The notes beneath the pieces are model-generated. The model did no database searches and was not told where the DNA came from. It saw only the letters and a list, made by a program, of their open reading frames with translations. From the IMG/VR virus record IMGVR_UViG_3300014691_000062: a stretch of 19,618 nt of DNA. One strand, 5' to 3'. A program made the position numbers and the translations under genes. The DNA comes from a virus (Duplodnaviria > Heunggongvirae > Uroviricota > Caudoviricetes). Below, one piece after another: positions 90 to 18,250 of this stretch; position 1 is the first letter of the stretch, and every line of letters starts with the position of its first letter.

Positions 90-1816
90 TTAAAGCGAGC
101 GGATCCCATAGGACTCAATGTGGTCAGACAGCGTGTCTTCTTTCTCGTACAGCATGGCTCTGCCAACCGCCATAATCAGCGCAACTGCACCATCGATTTT
201 GTTTTCCGCCTGCTCTTTGACGGGCTTCACCACATCATCGTTACCCGGAATGGTTTTGCCGACCACGTTGCCGATACACCAGGTCATGATGGGATTGCCG
301 TCATGATGAAAACGTCCCGATTCANNNNNNNNNNNNNNNNNNNNNNNNNNNNNNNNNNNNNNNNNNNNNNNNNNNNNNNNNNNNNNNNNNNNNCATCAGC
401 AAGGTCATGTGACAACCCGGTCGCCCCGAAGGGGTCGATGGGTGACTCACTGACCGGGCTGATTTTGTTCGCCGCTTTGGCCTCCTCGAGGATGTAGCGA
501 TAATCCACTTCCGCACCATCGGTAACGGTCAGAACGCCCATTTCCACCCATTTCTGAAAGCGTTCGGCTGTCCGTCGATCTTCATTTTTCTCGACGCTGT
601 ACACCGTGTCATACGGTACCCAGAAACGCGGGGCCACACTGTAGTAATGCGTTTTACCGTCAATCTCGCGGGTATAAAGTCGCGCCATGCTGTTCATATC
701 CAGCTTACGCGCCAGGTCAAAGGCCAGAATGCACGGCTGCCCCTCGAACTGCTCAAGGGTCAGTGATTTATCCTCGCAGCTCTGCCAGCTCACCAGGTTG
801 AAATACGCCGAACGCGCCGACACCCAGATATTGAGGTGTTTTGTTTTAAAGACGTTTGCCAGACGGGCGTTATTTTTCGCACGCTGCTGCTGACTTAACA
901 AAAATTCGCGATAAACCGACACGCCAATATTTGGATTGGCTTTTTCCAGCACCTGCGGGTCGGTCCAGTCATCGCCTTCGTCAACGGTATAGATGATCCC
1001 GAACAGTTCATCGTTGGGTACCGAACCGTTGAGCATCTCGAGAACTTCCCGCCGCTTGTCGTAGCACGGCCCCTCAATGTTGTACCCGGCGGTGGTGATG
1101 GCCCACATCAGTGGCTGACGTCGCGCCCCCATCCCGGTAAGCATCGTGGTGTAAAGTGCATCGGTGGCATGCTCGTGATATTCATCCACCACCGCACAGT
1201 GGGGTGATGAACCATCACCGGGGTTACCGATCAGCGGCTCAAACCGCGCGCCATCCTCCGGACGGTTCATGTTTGAGGCGTTAACCTCAATCCCGAACGC
1301 TTCCGTCAGCATGGGTGTGCGTTTACACATCAGTCGCGCCGGGCGAAAGACTTCCCACGCCTGTTTCTCTGTCGTGGCACCGGAATACACTTCCGCGCCA
1401 AACTCGTTATCACAGGCAAAACAATACAGGGCGACACCGGCAGAGATTGCCGATTTGCCGTTCTTACGGGGGATTTCGGTATACACCTCCCGGAAGCGGC
1501 GCAGCCGGGTACCTTTATTGACCCAGCCAAACGCACAGCAGATCACAAAGAGCTGCCACGGCTCCAGCGTGATGGGCATCCGTTTGAATGCCCACTCACC
1601 CTTGGTATGCGGCAACAGCTGAATAAATTTGGCGGCCCGTTCAGCCAGGTCCTTGTCGAAGCGGTAACGAAACGACTTACTTTTTTCCGCCATCAGGTCA
1701 TCAAGATGGCGCTGGCAGGCCTGAATCACAAACTGGCAGGCCACAATCTTTCCGCGAACGACATCCCGGGCATACTGATTGGCAGCATTTACGTTGGGGT
1801 AAGATTTCCGGCTCAT
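90..1816 (-). CDS. Terminase large subunit (TerL), interrupted by an N-run
   Basis: 510-aa ORF 284..1816 with terminase-like ATPase/nuclease character; C-terminal continuation is ORF 90..287 (…[13 protein letters not shown]…). N-run 325..393 breaks the frame. ATG overlaps the TerS stop (ATGA). Confidence 0.8.
325..393. other. Run of 69 N (gap or masked sequence) inside TerL
   Basis: Literal n characters in the sequence. Confidence 1.
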
Positions 1817-3632: not shown

Positions 3633-4116
3633 CTATCTGCACTGCTCATTAATATACTTCTGGGTTCCTTCCAGTTGTTTTTGCATAGTGATCAGCCTCT
3701 CTCTGAGAGTGAAATAATCCCGTTCAGCGGTGTCTGCCAGTCGGGGGGAGGCTGCATTATCCATGCCGGAGGCGGTGGTGGCTTCACGCACTGACTGACA
3801 GACTGCTTTGATGTGCAACCGACGACGACCAGCGGCAACATCATCACGCAGAGCATCATTTTCAGCTTTCGCATCAGCTAACTCCTTCGTGTATTTTGCA
3901 TCGAGCGCAGCGACATCACGTTGGCGCACCTGCATGTCAGTAATTGCCGCGTTCGCCAGCTTCAGTTCTCTGGCATTTTTNNNNNNNNNNNNNNNNNNNN
4001 NNNNNNNNNNNNNNNNNNNNNNNNNNNNNNNNNNNNNNNNNNNNNNNNNNAGCCAATGACATGCAGACGATGATGCAGATGAGCAGAGCGGAGATAATCG
4101 CGGTTAATCTGCTCAT
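3633..4116 (-). CDS. Rz: Rz i-spanin (inner-membrane spanin subunit), interrupted by an N-run
   Basis: C-terminal part (ORF 3633..3935) matches lambda Rz by recall; N-terminus [18 protein letters not shown] is read from the ATG at 4116, which overlaps the R stop (ATGA). N-run 3981..4050 lies inside, so the length is not a multiple of 3. Confidence 0.85.
3692..3874 (-). CDS. Rz1: Rz1 o-spanin lipoprotein, embedded in Rz in the +1 frame
   Basis: 60 aa [24 protein letters not shown]…[15 protein letters not shown]…, lipobox and proline-rich body as in lambda Rz1. Confidence 0.85.
3981..4050. other. Run of 70 N (gap or masked sequence) inside Rz
   Basis: Literal n characters in the sequence. Confidence 1.
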
Positions 4117-11480: not shown

Positions 11481-12313
11481 TCACCCCCTGAATCCTGCCG
11501 GGATCTGGCTGTAGTCCACGTTGTCGTAACTGGATTTGAAATACGGGTCTTCGCGTTTTTCTGTGTATGTGCTGATGGACGGCGATAAGCGCAGGGAAAG
11601 CTCATCCCATTTTTCCCGCAGCTTCGACGGGCTGAGCACGTTACGGCACCAGAACGGATCGCGGCTGACGCGGCTGTACATCTCGCAGATTTGTTTGTGA
11701 GTACGACCATCCTGCACACACATCAGGCGAATTTCGTTTGCCCAGGCTGTCCAGTTCGGTTCTTTGGGACGAACCACCTCGCCGTCACATTCGGCGGCCT
11801 GCTCGTACAGGGCGATGANNNNNNNNNNTGCTGGGTTGGGAAACCGCCGGAACGAGAAGGTTTTTTATCTGACGGATCATGTTTTGATTTTACTGACGGA
11901 TCCCCGCCAGATTCTGACGGGTGAAAACCCGCTTTTTTGCCAGATTTCGACGCATCAAATTTTGACGGGTCAGATTTTGATGCGTCAGATTTTGACGGGT
12001 CAGAATCTGACAGTTGAGAAAATGCCGCTGCCTGAAGCTTCGCAACGTTAAGCTGATAAACATTCGACGCATTGCGGTTACCCTGGCGACGCGCCTTACG
12101 CGTTAACCAGCCTTCTGCTTCCAGCCGTGCGATAGCCGTTCTGACGGTACTCATCCCCGCGCCAATCTGGCGGGCAATGGTTTCAATTGATGGCCAGCAC
12201 ACACCTTCGTCATTACTGAAATCAGCCAGGCGGGCCATAATTGCCACGCTGGATAATTTCATGCCTGATGCAGCGCAACCATCCCATACATAGCCGGTTA
12301 ATTTAGTGCTCAT
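11481..12313 (-). CDS. Replication initiator (lambda O-like organisation, HTH N-domain) with the origin iterons inside the gene; interrupted by an N-run
   Basis: N-terminal HTH domain (…WPSIETIARQIGAGMSTVRTAIARLEAEGWL…), then a repetitive SKSDASKSDPSKFD linker encoded by iterons; C-terminal part is ORF 11481..11777. N-run 11819..11828 inside; GAGGT SD. Confidence 0.7.
11819..11828. other. Run of 10 N inside the replication gene
   Basis: Literal n characters in the sequence. Confidence 1.
11866..12012. repeat. Origin-like iteron array
   Basis: About 8 tandem copies of a ~12-15 bp unit built on TGACGG (cagattttgacgggt, cagattttgatgcgt, attctgacgggt, tactgacggatc …). Confidence 0.7.
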
Positions 12314-12661: not shown

Positions 12662-13266
12662 GCGTTAGTTTCTCCACAGTCACGACACGCCACGGCGCCC
12701 GGAGCTGCACACTCGCGGGCGTCATTACTTTCTGAAATGCAAAAGATTTTGTAGACCAGTGCTGCATGCTCCTGCAGCTTCGAAATTGAGAGATACAGCT
12801 CGTCGTTAATTGCTGTCTTCTCATGCGGTTCCACCACACCGTCTTCGATTGCCGAACGAATCTGTCTGGAATAACTGCCAATCTGTTCAATGACTTCCAG
12901 CAGGCGCTGGTTAATATCGGCGTTGTCCACATCCTCGACGTCAGGAAGAGACACAAAGACGCCATTTGCAGACTGCGCCACAGCGTCAGCAATGAAGTGA
13001 GTTCCACCAGCACGTTGCAAAATCATTGCCCATCCCAGCGGGAAAATCTGATCGCCATCGGCACGAAGGCGGTTAAATAATGCGTTTTCTGTTACATCCA
13101 GCCAGTCAGCTGCTTCAGCGTAACCACCCGGCAACGCTGCGATAGTTTTTCTGACAGCTTTCACGTACCACTCAGGCTGTTTTTCTACTTTCCAGTGATG
13201 CTTACCCACGGTTAGCCTCATCGTTCTGTGGTTTCTGTTAATCGATTTATCCATTAGATTTTTCAT
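12658..13266 (-). CDS. Putative CII-like / YdaT-family regulator
   Basis: Long ORF immediately downstream of a YdaS-like cro. The track start at 13323 would overlap cro by 77 nt; plausible ATGs are at 13266, 13254 and 13221. Family assignment is from position and partial recall. Confidence 0.45.
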
Positions 13267-13447
13267 AAAGCTCAGGTTTAAATGGCAACCGTCCGCAAGT
13301 TCTATATGCAGCTTCTGCTGCACGTCCTTTTGGAATTAACTGGCCCGGACGGTTTCGCCACTGATAAACGGCTTCAGTTGTTATGCCGAAAAAAGCAGCA
13401 ACTTTCTCAATACTGCCGAAGTAGCTTTCGATATCGTCAGTTGTCAT
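13247..13447 (-). CDS. cro: Cro-like repressor (YdaS-family HTH)
   Basis: 66 aa, divergent from cI across an operator region; HTH …SIEKVAAFFGITTEAVYQWRN… resembles YdaS/Cro. Confidence 0.75.
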   Translation of the reverse strand: MTTDDIESYFGSIEKVAAFFGITTEAVYQWRNRPGQLIPKGRAAEAAYRTCGRLPFKPELYEKSNG

Positions 13448-13544
13448 ACGCCCTCCAAACTAAGTTTTATTAGATGCTAATTACAAATCTATCTTTGGTC
13501 AATAAAAACTAAGATTACTTAGCAATTCAAGAAATGGTGCTCCT
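13448..13544. promoter_or_regulatory. OR-like region: divergent promoters with two operator palindromes
   Basis: CTAAGttttaTTAG at 13460..13473 and CTAAGattaCTTAG at 13509..13522 between divergent cro and cI. Confidence 0.6.
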
Positions 13545-14171
13545 ATGGAAACGGTTGGTCAGCGTATAAAAGCTCTGAGAAGAGTTACCGGAACGTCCCA
13601 GAAAGAATTGGGTAAATTTTGTGGAGTAAGCGACGTTGCTGTGGGGTACTGGGAGAAAGACATCAATACCCCTGGTGGGGAGGCACTTTCGAAATTAGCG
13701 AAGTTCTTCAATACGTCAATAGATTACATTCTTTATGGTGCTGAGTTTGAAGGCAAACTCGTCACAAACATGCGCAGAGTTCCTGTAATATCGTGGGTTC
13801 AGGCTGGGCAGTTTACTGAATGCAGGGCAGCAGAAGTGTTTAGTGAAGTGGACAAGTGGGTAGATACATCATTAAAGATTGGTGATAACTCATTTGCATT
13901 AGAGGTTAAAGGTGACTCCATGACTAACCCTAATGGCCTCCCAACAATACCAGAAGGCGCAACAGTGATTGTAGATCCAGATGCAGAACCTCGTCATGGA
14001 AAAATAGTCATCGCTCGACTTGATGGAACAAACGAAGCTACAGTAAAAAAATTAGTCATCGATGGCCCTCAAAAGTTTTTAGTGCCATTAAATCCTCGGT
14101 ATCCCAACATCCCTATCAATGGTAATTGCCTTATCATTGGTGTAGTCAAAGGAGTTCAATACGAACTCTAA
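13545..14171 (+). CDS. cI: CI-type prophage repressor (HTH plus S24 LexA-like autopeptidase domain)
   Basis: 208 aa; HTH …GTSQKELGKFCGVSDVAVGYWEKD…; S24 motifs GDSM and …ATVKKL…; overall similarity to P22 C2 / lambda CI by recall. Confidence 0.9.
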   Translation: METVGQRIKALRRVTGTSQKELGKFCGVSDVAVGYWEKDINTPGGEALSKLAKFFNTSIDYILYGAEFEGKLVTNMRRVPVISWVQAGQFTECRAAEVFSEVDKWVDTSLKIGDNSFALEVKGDSMTNPNGLPTIPEGATVIVDPDAEPRHGKIVIARLDGTNEATVKKLVIDGPQKFLVPLNPRYPNIPINGNCLIIGVVKGVQYEL

Positions 14172-14184
14172 GACCTCTCTTCTC

Positions 14185-14255
14185 TAACTAAGGCACCGAA
14201 CTAAGAAAAGTTTGGTGTTTTTTCTTGCCATAATAACTAAGTTAAGTTAGATTTT
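14185..14255 (+). promoter_or_regulatory. OL/PL-like region: operator repeats and a candidate sigma70 promoter
   Basis: CTAAG…CTAAG at 14188..14205 and CTAAGttaagTTAG at 14237..14250; TTGCCA (14225..14230), 17-nt spacer, TAGATT (14248..14253). Confidence 0.5.
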
Positions 14256-14361
14256 ATATCAAAGATAACGAACAGGCAGGACGCCCACGAAGTAGCCGCC
14301 TGGGGCATATAAAGTCTAGGGTGATTCGTTAGCAACAAAAAAGCGCCCTACAGGACGCTTA

Positions 14362-14374
14362 GCTCTTTAACAAT
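14362..14374 (+). promoter_or_regulatory. boxA-like element (rrn-type GCTCTTTAACAAT) in the early-left leader
   Basis: 13/13 identity with the E. coli rrn boxA core as I recall it; about 110 nt downstream of the putative PL and 45 nt upstream of the first early-left ORF. Confidence 0.45.
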
Positions 14375-14418
14375 CTGGTCCCCATCAACAAGTAACTGAT
14401 AACTTGAGGAGGTGTGAA

Positions 14419-14625
14419 ATGCACAAAACAGAACCCAAAATCGTCGCGCCCGGATACACAAATGAGGAAATTTACGAGTGGATGGCAAAGAAGCTGGCAG
14501 CTATAAACCAGCTTCGTGAAGTGCTGTCTTATCGACAGGAAACAATAGACTCCTTAAAAAAACTGGATCAGGAAATCACGGTTTTATCACAGGATGTTAC
14601 TTTAGATATTGTGCAGACAAATTAG
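14419..14625 (+). CDS. Small hypothetical protein in the position normally held by N
   Basis: 68 aa from the ATG at 14419 with GGAGGTG SD (track start 14404 is TTG). No arginine-rich motif, so not N-like. AT-rich. Confidence 0.5.
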   Translation: MHKTEPKIVAPGYTNEEIYEWMAKKLAAINQLREVLSYRQETIDSLKKLDQEITVLSQDVTLDIVQTN

Positions 14626-15031
14626 GATCCCATTCATTTTCGTCAAAATCATCAAAGTGATGAATTTGTGATCTCCAGTCTCGATAATCTAAAAATTTCT
14701 GGGCGGTTACGCTTATTTTATCAAGTGTGAGTTCATCCTGAATTGAAAGAAGAAGTTCATCAAATTTCATCTCATTAATCTGTTTTGGCATCCAGTGATG
14801 CTTCATCAGAATAAGGTGAACCAGAGCCTTTTTCCCATTCAACTGATTATAGGGAGTGCCGAATTTCTTCCGGTGCTCATGTAAGACAAGGTCCAGAAGA
14901 GTAAGTAATGTTGCCCTTGATTCCACTTTGCTTATTTCGACTGATGACACTACCCCACTGATTTCAATGCCCCGATACTTTCCAACATTTTCACAGTGGG
15001 ATTTGTACAGCGTGTAGATATTACCGGACAT
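14597..15031 (-). CDS. Hypothetical protein, convergent with and overlapping the preceding ORF
   Basis: 144 aa, ATG with AGGA-type SD; acidic C-terminus (…HHFDDFDENEWDPN…); AT-rich; antisense to the early-left operon. Confidence 0.55.
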   Translation of the reverse strand: MSGNIYTLYKSHCENVGKYRGIEISGVVSSVEISKVESRATLLTLLDLVLHEHRKKFGTPYNQLNGKKALVHLILMKHHWMPKQINEMKFDELLLSIQDELTLDKISVTAQKFLDYRDWRSQIHHFDDFDENEWDPNLSAQYLK

Positions 15032-15046
15032 TTCTTTTCCTTTTGC

Positions 15047-15098
15047 GTTGTTGGGGATAACCAGATTAACCGAATCCTTGTTGTTGGGGAATAACCAG
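15047..15098. repeat. Direct repeat GTTGTTGGGGATAACCAG / GTTGTTGGGGAATAACCAG upstream of the 14597..15031 gene
   Basis: Two copies (15047..15064, 15080..15098) differing by one inserted A; on the minus strand they read TTATCCCCA, one mismatch from a DnaA-box consensus. Confidence 0.5.
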
Positions 15099-15104
15099 GT
15101 CCAC

Positions 15105-15545
15105 CTCGCCTGATGTGGCTAAAAGCAGGCACATAACAGCTAAGTATTTTTAACCAGAGAGAATCCTTAGCGTTGTGGTGAATGCGGCTCAGCGCACGCG
15201 GGTTAAGGTTGAGGCTGACAGTCGACCTTCTGTGGATACCCACCCGTCTGGTGTGCAACCTTCGCCAGGCACCGGGAGGCACCCGGCACCACAACTTTAT
15301 GCTGTGTGTAGTCCTGGAGGTACCAGTTTGTACCCTTGCTTCCGGCTGGTACCGTCCTTTTTACAAAACAGAGAAGAGCATCACCGGACGACGGGCTCAT
15401 AACCCAATCCATCCGGGCGGCTGCCACCGCAGGTGTTCTTCTCTGTTTTGTGGAGAAACTAACCGCCCCTACGGGGGCATTCATGGAAATGTAATTGACT
15501 CAATAATCGCCGGACGGTGAGGGCTTCCTTTTACCCGAATTCAGC
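15105..15545. other. GC-rich, ORF-poor, self-complementary segment (candidate structured RNA or decayed remnant)
   Basis: Only short ORFs with R/P/G-rich nonsense translations in several frames; nested inverted repeats (ggtaccag…ctggtacc 15320..15353; aacagagaaga…tcttctctgtt ~15367..15446; gcccctacgggggc ~15465..15478). Confidence 0.35.
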
Positions 15546-15575
15546 GCGGTGCAGCGCATATACGTGGAGAACAAA

Positions 15576-16770: not shown

Positions 16771-17120
16771 TGGAGCCATACAGCCTCACACTCGATGAGG
16801 CCTGTCATTTTCTCAAGATATCCAGACCGACTGCCATTAACTGGATACGCACAGGGCGTCTTCAGGCAACACGTAAAGATCCCACTAAGAATAAATCTCC
16901 TTACCTCACAACACGACAAGCCTGCATTGCGGCTCTTCAGTCTCCGCTGCATACTGTCCAGGTGAGCGCGGGTGATGGCATAACAGAGGAAAGAAAATGT
17001 CACTCTTCCGCAGAGGTGAAATATGGTACGCCAGTTTCACATTGCCGAACGGTAAAAGATTTAAACAGTCTCTTGGAACAAAGGACAAAAGGCAGGCGAC
17101 AGAACTCCATGACAAGCTAA
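16770..17120 (+). CDS. xis: Excisionase (P22-type Xis)
   Basis: 116 aa from the ATG at 16770 ([33 protein letters not shown]…); HTH and position immediately upstream of int. The ORF overlaps the int start by 124 nt, so the true C-terminus may differ. Confidence 0.8.
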
Positions 17121-18160
17121 AGGCTGAAGCATGGCGGGTCAGCAAACTTGGTGAAATACCTGATATAACGTTCGAGGAAGCTTGTGTCAGGTGGCTTGAA
17201 GAGAAAGCACATAAAAAATCACTGGACGATGACAAAAGCCGGATCGGATTCTGGCTTCAACATTTCGCAGGAATGCAACTAAGAGACATTACTGAATCAA
17301 AAATTTATTCAGCAATGCAGAAAATGACGAACCGGCGTCATGAGGAAAACTGGAAACTCAGGGCAGAAGCATGCAGAAAAAAAGGGAAACCTGTTCCAGA
17401 ATACACGCCAAAACCAGCGTCCGTTGCAACGAAGGCTACGCATCTTTCATTTATAAAGGCCCTACTAAGAGCCGCAGAGCGTGAATGGAAAATGCTGGAT
17501 AAGGCACCAATTATTAAAGTGCCTCAACCAAAGAATAAACGGATCCGCTGGCTGGAGCCCCATGAAGCACAAAGGCTGATTGATGAATGTCCGGAGCCAT
17601 TAAAGTCTGTTGTTGAATTTGCACTGGCAACAGGCTTAAGACGCTCGAACATCATCAACCTTGAATGGCAACAAATAGATATGCAGCGCCGGGTGGCATG
17701 GATAAACCCGGAAGAGAGTAAATCAAACCGCGCAATTGGCGTTGCGCTGAATGATACTGCATGTCGCGTATTGAAAAAACAAATCGGGAATCATCACCGT
17801 TGGGTATTTGTGTACAAGGAAAGCTGTACCAAACCAGACGGAACGAAAGCGCCAACAGTAAGGAAGATGCGGTATGACGCAAACACAGCCTGGAAAGCGG
17901 CGCTGAGACGGGCTGGTATTGATGATTTCAGATTTCACGACTTGAGACACACCTGGGCAAGTTGGCTGGTTCAAGCCGGAGTCCCGTTGTCAGTGTTACA
18001 GGAAATGGGAGGCTGGGAGTCTATCGAAATGGTTCGTCGATATGCTCACCTTGCACCTAATCACCTTACCGAACACGCACGGCAAATAGACTCGATCCTG
18101 AACCCATCGGTCCCAAATTTGTCCCAGTCAAAAAATAAGGAAGGTACTAATGATGTGTAA
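16997..18160 (+). CDS. int: Tyrosine site-specific integrase (P22-type Int)
   Basis: 387 aa; catalytic region …[16 protein letters not shown]…MVRRYAHL…; high similarity to P22 Int by recall; ends 14 bp before the 3' end of thrW. Confidence 0.95.
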
Positions 18161-18250
18161 CTTATTGATTTTAATGGTGCCGATAATAGGAGTCGAACCT
18201 ACGACCTTCGCATTACGAATGCGCTGCTCTACCAACTGAGCTATATCGGC
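18161..18250. other. Putative attL (core expected to overlap the 3' part of thrW)
   Basis: Junction between the int stop and the tRNA; P22-type integrases are known to target the 3' end of thrW. Exact core boundaries cannot be set without attR or attB. Confidence 0.45.
18175..18250 (-). tRNA. thrW: tRNA-Thr (anticodon CGU)
   Basis: 76-nt minus-strand sequence GCCGATATAGCTCAGTTGGTAGAGCAGCGCATTCGTAATGCGAAGGTCGTAGGTTCGACTCCTATTATCGGCACCA: cloverleaf, CGT anticodon, encoded CCA end. Confidence 0.95.

Follow-up and report, generated by a model that had tools for sequence, protein, structure and literature searches.

We propose that the immunity region of this E. coli prophage is a lambdoid switch that is built like the immC region of phage P22 but that has an operator sequence of its own, a reading to which we give a probability of about 0.86. 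In the proposal, the operator is 14 bp long and has the form CTAAG-N4-CTTAG, with two 5-bp half-sites placed around four central bases, and the CI homologue is predicted to bind to copies of it on either side of cI. A family of operators for CI at these places had already been put forward in the sequence-only reading of the region, and it is now supported by the confinement of the motif to the flanks of cI, the conservation footprint, the covariation of the half-site with the recognition helix and the P22-like geometry. In the following, the window means the whole stretch of 19,618 nucleotides (19.6 kb) that was analysed.

The operators belong to an E. coli prophage of the SfV/e14/mEp460 kind, whose early region the window carries. 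Over positions 13200-14450 the DNA is 99.4% identical to that of phage vB_EcoM-689R6, 94% identical to that of mEp460_4F5 and 77% identical to that of phage LLS, at least 80% of this interval is present in 513 of 5,426 complete E. coli genomes, and orthologues of cI are spread over about ten enterobacterial genera. The gene cI (13545..14171, plus strand) and the gene cro (13247..13447, minus strand) are divergent and are separated by a gap of 97 bp, and a single operator family, with three copies in OR and two in OL, overlaps PR, the cI-proximal promoter region and PL, which is the arrangement of a lambdoid CI/Cro immunity region. The product of cro, the lytic repressor, has 66 aa and matches the Pfam family P22_Cro (E 4.4e-11), with the Cro of N15 (2hin) as the nearest solved structure; the gene is kept in the orthologous loci, where its helix EAVYQWR is conserved, and a CII/CP76-like (YmfL) gene sits beyond it.

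The product of cI has 208 aa and consists, by Pfam, of an HTH_3 DNA-binding domain and an S24 autocleavage domain (Peptidase_S24, PF00717, E 9e-28). Its residues 3-65 match the structures 3jxb, 2r1j and 1adr of the P22 C2 repressor (phmmer against PDB, E 1.9e-10), with 27 of 63-64 residues of the N-terminal domain being identical to those of C2, and the region of its recognition helix, at aa 27-39, reads GVSDVAVGYWEKD. The C-terminal domain matches that of lambda CI (E about 1e-27), and Ala87-Gly88, Ser125 and Lys168 align with the QAG, GNSM and KKL motifs of lambda CI, respectively. With its Ala-Gly site and Ser/Lys dyad, the protein is thus a self-cleaving repressor of the S24 kind as judged from its sequence, with cleavage predicted.

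The pattern CTAAGNNNNNTTAG matches at only three places in the 19.6 kb, 13460-13473, 13509-13522 and 14237-14250, all of which flank cI. The chance expectation in the window is 0.10, so that the exact pattern is 30-fold above expectation, and the observed count was reached in none of 200 shuffles. In the 43.5-kb complete record of vB_EcoM-689R6 the same three places are the sole matches to CTAAG-N5-TTAG, where 0.16 are expected. The search for the motif elsewhere in the prophage that had been suggested for the earlier proposal thus finds the matches confined to the flanks of cI, in the window as well as in the 43.5-kb relative. When two mismatches are allowed, the relaxed pattern is at chance level in the window, with 6 matches found versus 5.0 expected, and the scan with a position weight matrix (PWM) gives 4 sites with scores of at least 10 bits versus 0.96 expected; note that the PWM takes in the AT-rich centres of the sites and that the mid-range scores are therefore near chance. 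Two further matches, at 15140-15153 and 17279-17292, were considered as operators and rejected, as they are chance-level matches outside promoters. The two intergenic regions contain no further repeated palindrome, and no family of Rfam was found for the operator regions.

Between cro and cI, the promoter PR is read on the minus strand as TTGACC, a spacer of 17 bp and TAGCAT, with the -35 at 13497..13502 and the -10 at 13474..13479, as found by the promoter scan. It is conserved in the orthologues, which have TAATAT as the -10, with the columns of the -35 and the -10 being 0.93 and 0.89 conserved, respectively. OR1 (13460..13473), with the sequence CTAAGTTTTATTAG, is an exact match to the motif that adjoins the -10 of PR and covers the predicted start of PR (about 13467), thus standing relative to PR as does the cro-proximal site of P22. 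Its PWM score is 19.5 bits and its half-site columns are 0.93 conserved among 19 orthologues. OR3 (13509..13522), with the sequence CTAAGATTACTTAG, is an exact match too, being a perfect palindrome that adjoins cI; it scores 20.8 bits, and among the 19 orthologues its half-site columns are 0.98 conserved and its central AT is invariant. OR3 overlaps both of the candidate -10 hexamers of PRM, TAAGAT at 13510-13515 and TAGCAA at 13520-13525, neither of which fits the lambda geometry cleanly. It would thus overlie PRM and hence would control the transcription of cI.

In the middle of OR there is a third site, OR2 (13484..13497), which was missing from the first list of sites. It has the sequence CAAATCTATCTTTG, a weak symmetric variant in which the second position of each half has A in place of T, and it fills the spacer of PR, with one base common to the -35. 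It lies midway between its OR neighbours, at centre-to-centre distances of 24 and 25 bp. Since OR2 alone scores just 6.1 bits, its status as an operator is derived from its conserved position and from the analogy with P22. In the orthologues the site appears as the full-consensus CTAATCTTTATTAG in Rahnella and with a CTTAG half in mEp460. The arrangement of the sites into an OR-like and an OL-like set, as suggested earlier, is therefore supported for both sets, with the correction that OR has three sites rather than two.

On the other side of cI, the promoter PL (14225..14253, plus strand) was found by the promoter scan as the -35 TTGCCA (14225-14230), a 17-bp spacer and the -10 TAGATT (14248-14253), and in the orthologues the hexamers TTGACC or TTGACA and TAGATT stand at the same place. 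The transcribed leader of PL is homologous to the PL leader of P22. OL1 (14237..14250), with the sequence CTAAGTTAAGTTAG, is an exact match to the motif with a PWM score of 20.7 bits, is identical in nearly all orthologues, and occupies the same place as the OL site that P22 has in its PL spacer. It fills the spacer of PL and extends over the first three bases of the -10, so the suggestion that the last site overlies a candidate PL of the form TTGCCA-N17-TAGATT holds in full. Upstream of PL there is the intrinsic terminator of cI (14194..14223, plus strand), which consists of the stem CACCGAAC/GTTTGGTG and a following run of T6, with a fold energy of -15.1 kcal/mol (z -3.6). In LLS and other orthologues the stem is preserved by compensatory changes, and in SfV a terminator is annotated at the corresponding place. 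The top and the loop of the terminator hairpin contain a further, probable operator, OL2 (14201..14214), with the sequence CTAAGAAAAGTTTG, which is 36 bp from OL1 centre to centre and ends 10 bp upstream of the -35 of PL; its PWM score of 11.9 bits is the fourth best in the window.

The conservation of the sites was studied with one genome scan that gave 79 loci with genes for relatives of the repressor. The alignment comprised 19 orthologous OR regions, those of the window, of two phages and of prophages in other genera, with the genera being Escherichia, Enterobacter, Kosakonia, Kluyvera, Serratia, Rahnella, Yersinia, Rouxiella, Providencia and Proteus and with the CI identity going from 94% down to 63%. 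The OR sites hold their position in the 19 orthologues while the flanking DNA diverges. The mean frequency of the top base in the 19 loci is 0.90 in the half-sites, 0.75 in the central N4, 0.89-0.93 in the hexamers of PR and 0.59 in the other intergenic positions. By contrast, 80 viral contigs with an identical CI show variation that is too small to inform; the few differences among them leave the half-sites of OR1, OR3 and OL1, the three strong sites, untouched, and one is in the right half of OL2.

Across the 79 loci with cI homologues, a different recognition helix goes along with a different half-site, in the same 5+4+5 frame throughout. The helix SDV[AST]VGYW, that of the present repressor group, goes with the half-site CTAAG, and the P22-like helix SH[VA]A[IV]SQW of Photorhabdus and Xenorhabdus goes with TTAAG. 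Similarly, NRVTVTGW in Morganella and Proteus goes with GTAGG/GTAAG, while in Pseudomonas SQVTIQHL goes with ATAAC and EQPVISQL with ATAAG. This comparative evidence supports the earlier suggestion that the sites define the likely immunity specificity of the prophage. Note also that the helix of Cro co-varies with the sites as that of CI does, and because both co-vary with the sites, the comparative data cannot assign each site to CI or to Cro.

We now compare the region with immunity regions that are known. The P22 repressor reads six symmetric sites, in which it contacts the outer bases but not the four in the centre (PMC4267663). The geometry of the P22 immC was read here from a P22-type phage, in which ATTAAAGAACACTTAAAT, ACTAAAGGAATCTTTAGT and ATTTAAGATGACTTAACT lie between cro and c2, with centres 23 and 25 bp apart versus 24 and 25 bp here. 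In both OR regions the middle site is in the PR spacer at the -35 (TTGACT in P22) and the cro-proximal site adjoins the -10. The middle site of P22 has the same change of T to A in both halves (TTAAG to TAAAG, giving TAAAG..CTTTA) as OR2 here (CTAAG to CAAAT/CAAAG), and OR3 of P22, like OR3 here, contains TAAGAT. In the OL of P22 one site is in the PL spacer and the next is 35 bp upstream, versus 36 bp here. The inner bases AAG..CTT and the 5+4+5 frame are common to the two operators, with the frame present at all strong sites here. By contrast, the outer base is different, with TTAAG..CTTAA in P22 versus CTAAG here, and in helix 3 (SNVAISQW in P22 versus SDVAVGYW here) three of the eight compared positions differ, N to D, S to G and Q to Y. 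Because the half-site is CTAAG rather than TTAAG and the helix residues differ, the present phage does not belong to the P22 immunity group, and its repressor is, as its predicted half-site and its helix indicate, a relative of P22 C2 with its own specificity. The comparison with known immunity groups that the sequence-only reading had recommended thus gives a layout near-identical to that of P22 immC with a different half-site, as well as different repeats in SfV. Other differences from P22 are that a third OL site was not found here, whereas P22 has OL1-3; that c2 of P22 starts directly after OR3, whereas here there is a gap of about 20 nt with a GGTG Shine-Dalgarno-like box before cI; that OL2 is here fused with the cI terminator; that there is no homologue of N (gp24) after PL; and that the backbone is SfV/e14-like, with Mu-like tail genes.

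With lambda the region shares the homologous C-terminal domain of CI, a tripartite OR between divergent cI and cro with a spacing of about 24 bp between centres, and an operator-bearing PL downstream of cI. By contrast, the lambda operators (of the TATCACCGC type) are 17 bp long, versus 14 bp here, and a different N-terminal domain recognises them. Moreover, rexA and rexB separate cI from OL in lambda, where the OL-OR distance is 2.4 kb versus about 0.75 kb here. The phages SfV, SfIV and e14 (ymfK/ymfT) have the same order of a ymfL-like cII, cro, cI, terminator and PL, and they have the PL leader element and the backbone in common with the present phage, whereas their cI, cro and repeats are unrelated in sequence, the repeats being of the TGTACC..ATACA type and standing at the same positions in SfV. 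Because cI, cro and the repeats are unrelated, these phages are expected to be heteroimmune to the present one. mEp460_4F5 and LLS, on the other hand, carry the same immunity module (94% and 77% DNA identity, respectively, over cro-cI), show no difference in kind, and have a recognition helix and operator half-sites identical to those of the present phage. Because the helix and the half-sites are the same, LLS, mEp460_4F5 and the present prophage are predicted to be homoimmune.

It remains to weigh the other explanations of the palindromes, of which two concern the OL side. According to one, 14201-14214 is the top of the terminator hairpin and nothing else, so that OL would have OL1 as its single site. 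The 14 bp indeed lie wholly within a well-formed terminator with a T6 tail, and since a hairpin top is palindromic by necessity, part of the symmetry of OL2 is explained by the terminator; in addition, the right half GTTTG is off the consensus, and the PWM matches of at least 10 bits are near chance. What is hard to reconcile with this explanation is that 12 orthologues all have CTAAG, in the loop, and GTTTG unchanged, with compensating variation at the centre and in the lower stem, the opposite of what a plain terminator demands. Moreover, the spacing from OL2 to OL1 is fixed at 34-36 bp among the orthologues, the P22 counterpart stands 35 bp upstream of the site in the PL spacer, and at the place of OL2 the orthologues of Yersinia (Y. 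proxima) and Providencia show the full consensus but no hairpin. On balance, a terminator with no operator in it seems unlikely, and OL2 is quite probably a true operator, to which binding is predicted from the sequence comparison. According to the other explanation, the 18-bp stretch 14188-14205, CTAAGGCACCGAACTAAG, of the form CTAAG-N8-CTAAG, is an operator or a pair of half-sites, for example an OL3. It does contain two exact CTAAG words 13 bp apart, and a CTAAG upstream of the hairpin is also found in LLS and two Enterobacter orthologues. However, the two words are direct rather than inverted, no right half follows the one at 14188 (CTAAG-GCAC-CGAAC), the spacing of the words differs by one base in LLS, and in most orthologues the word at 14188 is CTAAC, ATAAC, AAAAC or CGAAC; the stretch is the 5' arm of the terminator, together with its loop. 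We consider such a role very improbable, and 14188-14205, with its direct repeats, its place in the terminator arm and its poor conservation, was rejected as an operator. Thus, while the earlier proposal had four partial palindromes of 14 bp flanking cI, those at 13460-13473, 13509-13522 and 14237-14250 stand and the one at 14188-14205, which is 18 bp long with direct words, does not.

Two more explanations concern the family as a whole. Cro, or another regulator, for example the CII-like YmfL, could be the main or sole reader of the sites, with CI binding elsewhere. The helix of Cro co-varies with the sites as does that of CI, which would be consistent with this, as the comparison cannot separate the two proteins. 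Against it, neither intergenic region offers an alternative repeated palindrome to which CI could bind, and the 5+4+5 geometry and the inner bases AAG/CTT match those of the operators of P22 C2, which is homologous to the N-terminal domain of CI. Moreover, the CI helix and the CTAAG sites are retained at some Rouxiella loci where no Cro-like ORF was detected by the scan. To our knowledge, CI and Cro share operators in every lambdoid phage that has been studied, and we give the explanation that leaves CI out even less weight than an operator at 14188-14205. Least probable of all, to the point that we would hardly entertain it, is that the palindromes have no binding function and stem from chance or from the composition of the AT-rich promoter DNA. 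The regions are AT-rich, and with two mismatches the matches are as many as chance gives; but the exact pattern is far in excess of expectation and occurs only at the flanks of cI, the half-sites are conserved over about ten genera amid diverging DNA, and the half-site tracks the helix of the repressor. We thus retain the reading of a P22-like switch with CTAAG operators.

Based on the P22 and lambda paradigms, from which the preference of each protein for each site, the cooperativity, the position of PRM and the inducibility are here transferred, the switch would be expected to work as follows. Dimers of CI would read the 14-bp sites via the helix-turn-helix domain that resembles that of P22 C2, and adjacent dimers would cooperate via the lambda-like C-terminal domain. 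CI at OR1 and OR2 would shut off PR and, with it, cro and the early rightward operon, while OR3 would either limit the transcription of cI, giving negative autoregulation, or serve as the first target of Cro, which is expected at the same sites as CI. CI at OL1 would block PL, with OL2 probably aiding OL1 via cooperative binding. Upon SOS, activated RecA would lead to the self-cleavage of CI at Ala87-Gly88 and then to the induction of the prophage.

A 2025 paper on phage LLS (PMC12315714) places the CI and Cro of LLS closest to the proteins of mEp460_4F5, names the P22 repressor, with 47% identity, as the closest one of known specificity, and describes the operator specificity of the LLS/mEp460 group as unknown and likely novel. 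A full-text literature search for six operator strings gave no paper, and a literature search on mEp460 gave nothing on its immunity. The predicted CTAAG-N4-CTTAG specificity is thus previously undescribed for this repressor group, while the lambdoid design itself is classic and the concept of lambdoid switches is unchanged by these operators. The list of sites, three in OR and two in OL, is a prediction for the whole LLS/mEp460 repressor group, and for a repressor module that is common in E. coli a candidate specificity is now concrete. The region also offers a natural case for shifts in helix-turn-helix specificity, as it has the P22-like architecture with one outer operator base changed.

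Two further ideas are offered jointly and tentatively, as their being both right seems to us possible but rather doubtful. One is that OL2 and the cI terminator are the same 14 bp, which would be doubly selected, as an RNA hairpin and as repressor-binding DNA; if this is true, repressor at OL2 could affect the read-through from cI into the PL operon. The other is that the family would present a natural one-base switch of specificity relative to P22, TTAAG to CTAAG, tied to the three residues of helix 3.

Finally, we note an element at 14274-14329, just downstream of PL, which is conserved in many heteroimmune phages and forms a hairpin with strong covariation. Each of its five pairs has changes in both partners, 96.5% of the cells are paired, and the covariation score is 0.340 versus 0.100 in shuffles, with the slid controls collapsing. 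For this PL leader no Rfam family and, in the literature search, no paper was found, and on the PR side there is no second copy of the element or of an STnc100-like stretch. The element may merit more attention than the operators themselves.

At the start of the transcript predicted from the promoter PL, which lies downstream of the repressor gene cI, there is a conserved element at 14274-14329 (+ strand), aligned here over loci L001, L003, L009, L010, L026, L029, L033 and L166-L170 (alignment A1). In order, it consists of the invariant sequence GGCAGGACGCCCACGAAGTAGCC, a hairpin with a 5-bp stem (14299-14303 pairing with 14316-14320, + strand) and a conserved 12-nt loop, GGCRTAYGAAGW, and then ATGATTCG. 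It is noted that phages and prophages of unrelated immunity carry the element, directly 3' of PL, the carriers being SfV, SfIV, Pantoea AH07, Yersinia YeP1, SPN3UB, ZF40, mEp237 and prophages of Photorhabdus and Xenorhabdus. In alignment A1, two-sided changes occur at all five stem pairs, giving at least six versions of the stem, with 96.5% of cells paired, and the covariation score is 0.340 versus 0.100 for shuffled alignments, with none of 500 shuffles reaching 0.340; the slid controls score at most 0.07. The element is a candidate cis-acting leader RNA. The PL leader of P22 has a related sequence, CAGCAGGACGCTGGTAGCC. An Rfam search with the element matched no family, and a literature search for its sequence found no paper containing it.

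The element lies within a block (14260-15095) that is missing from LLS, a relative with the same immunity module, and from some Enterobacter orthologues, in all of which PL adjoins sequence homologous to that from 15098 onward. The block also contains an ORF of 68 aa (14419-14625, + strand) and one of 144 aa (14597-15031, - strand), neither of which was matched in a Pfam search, and it looks like a moron-type insertion into the early left operon. Between the leader element and these ORFs is a further hairpin, GCGCCCTACAGGACGC (within 14341-14373), which is followed on the - strand by a T-run, and this would make it a minus-strand terminator for the 144-aa gene. Directly 3' of this hairpin on the + strand is the boxA-like word AGCTCTTTAACAA, resembling the boxA of P22 nutL, where the sequence is CGCTCTTTAAC. 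No boxB-like hairpin follows AGCTCTTTAACAA, and an N-like gene is absent.

Beyond the block there is a GC-rich stretch of 450 bp (15098-15548, + strand) with no credible ORF, the homologue of which directly follows PL in LLS and in Enterobacter prophages. Its part 15142-15364 matches the sRNA family STnc100 (RF02076) in Rfam at 38.4 bits (E 1.9e-6), which is sub-threshold, the gathering score of the family being 47. The stretch also contains an 18-nt inverted repeat (15363-80 with 15434-51). In the LLS paper (PMC12315714), the lack of an N homologue prompted speculation about put-like RNA antitermination.

Further along the window, an integrase gene (16997-18160, + strand) abuts a tRNA-Thr(CGT) gene (18175-18250, - strand), and therefore the prophage end is placed at the thrW tRNA gene. 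By contrast, in the record of the near-identical phage vB_EcoM-689R6 the end adjoins icd, and therefore one immunity module is combined with differing integration modules. Note also that bases are masked or unresolved (N) in three stretches of the window (325-393, 3981-4050 and 11819-11828), the last of which interrupts the O-like replication gene (11723-12313), the translation reading XXXX there.

Finally, the cI relatives of shared fold from other genera (L026-L084) make up a natural series in which at least five helix/half-site pairs share a single 5+4+5 frame, the half-sites being CTAAG, TTAAG, GTAGG/GTAAG, ATAAC and ATAAG. Such a series could be used as a data set on the recognition code of P22 C2-like domains.
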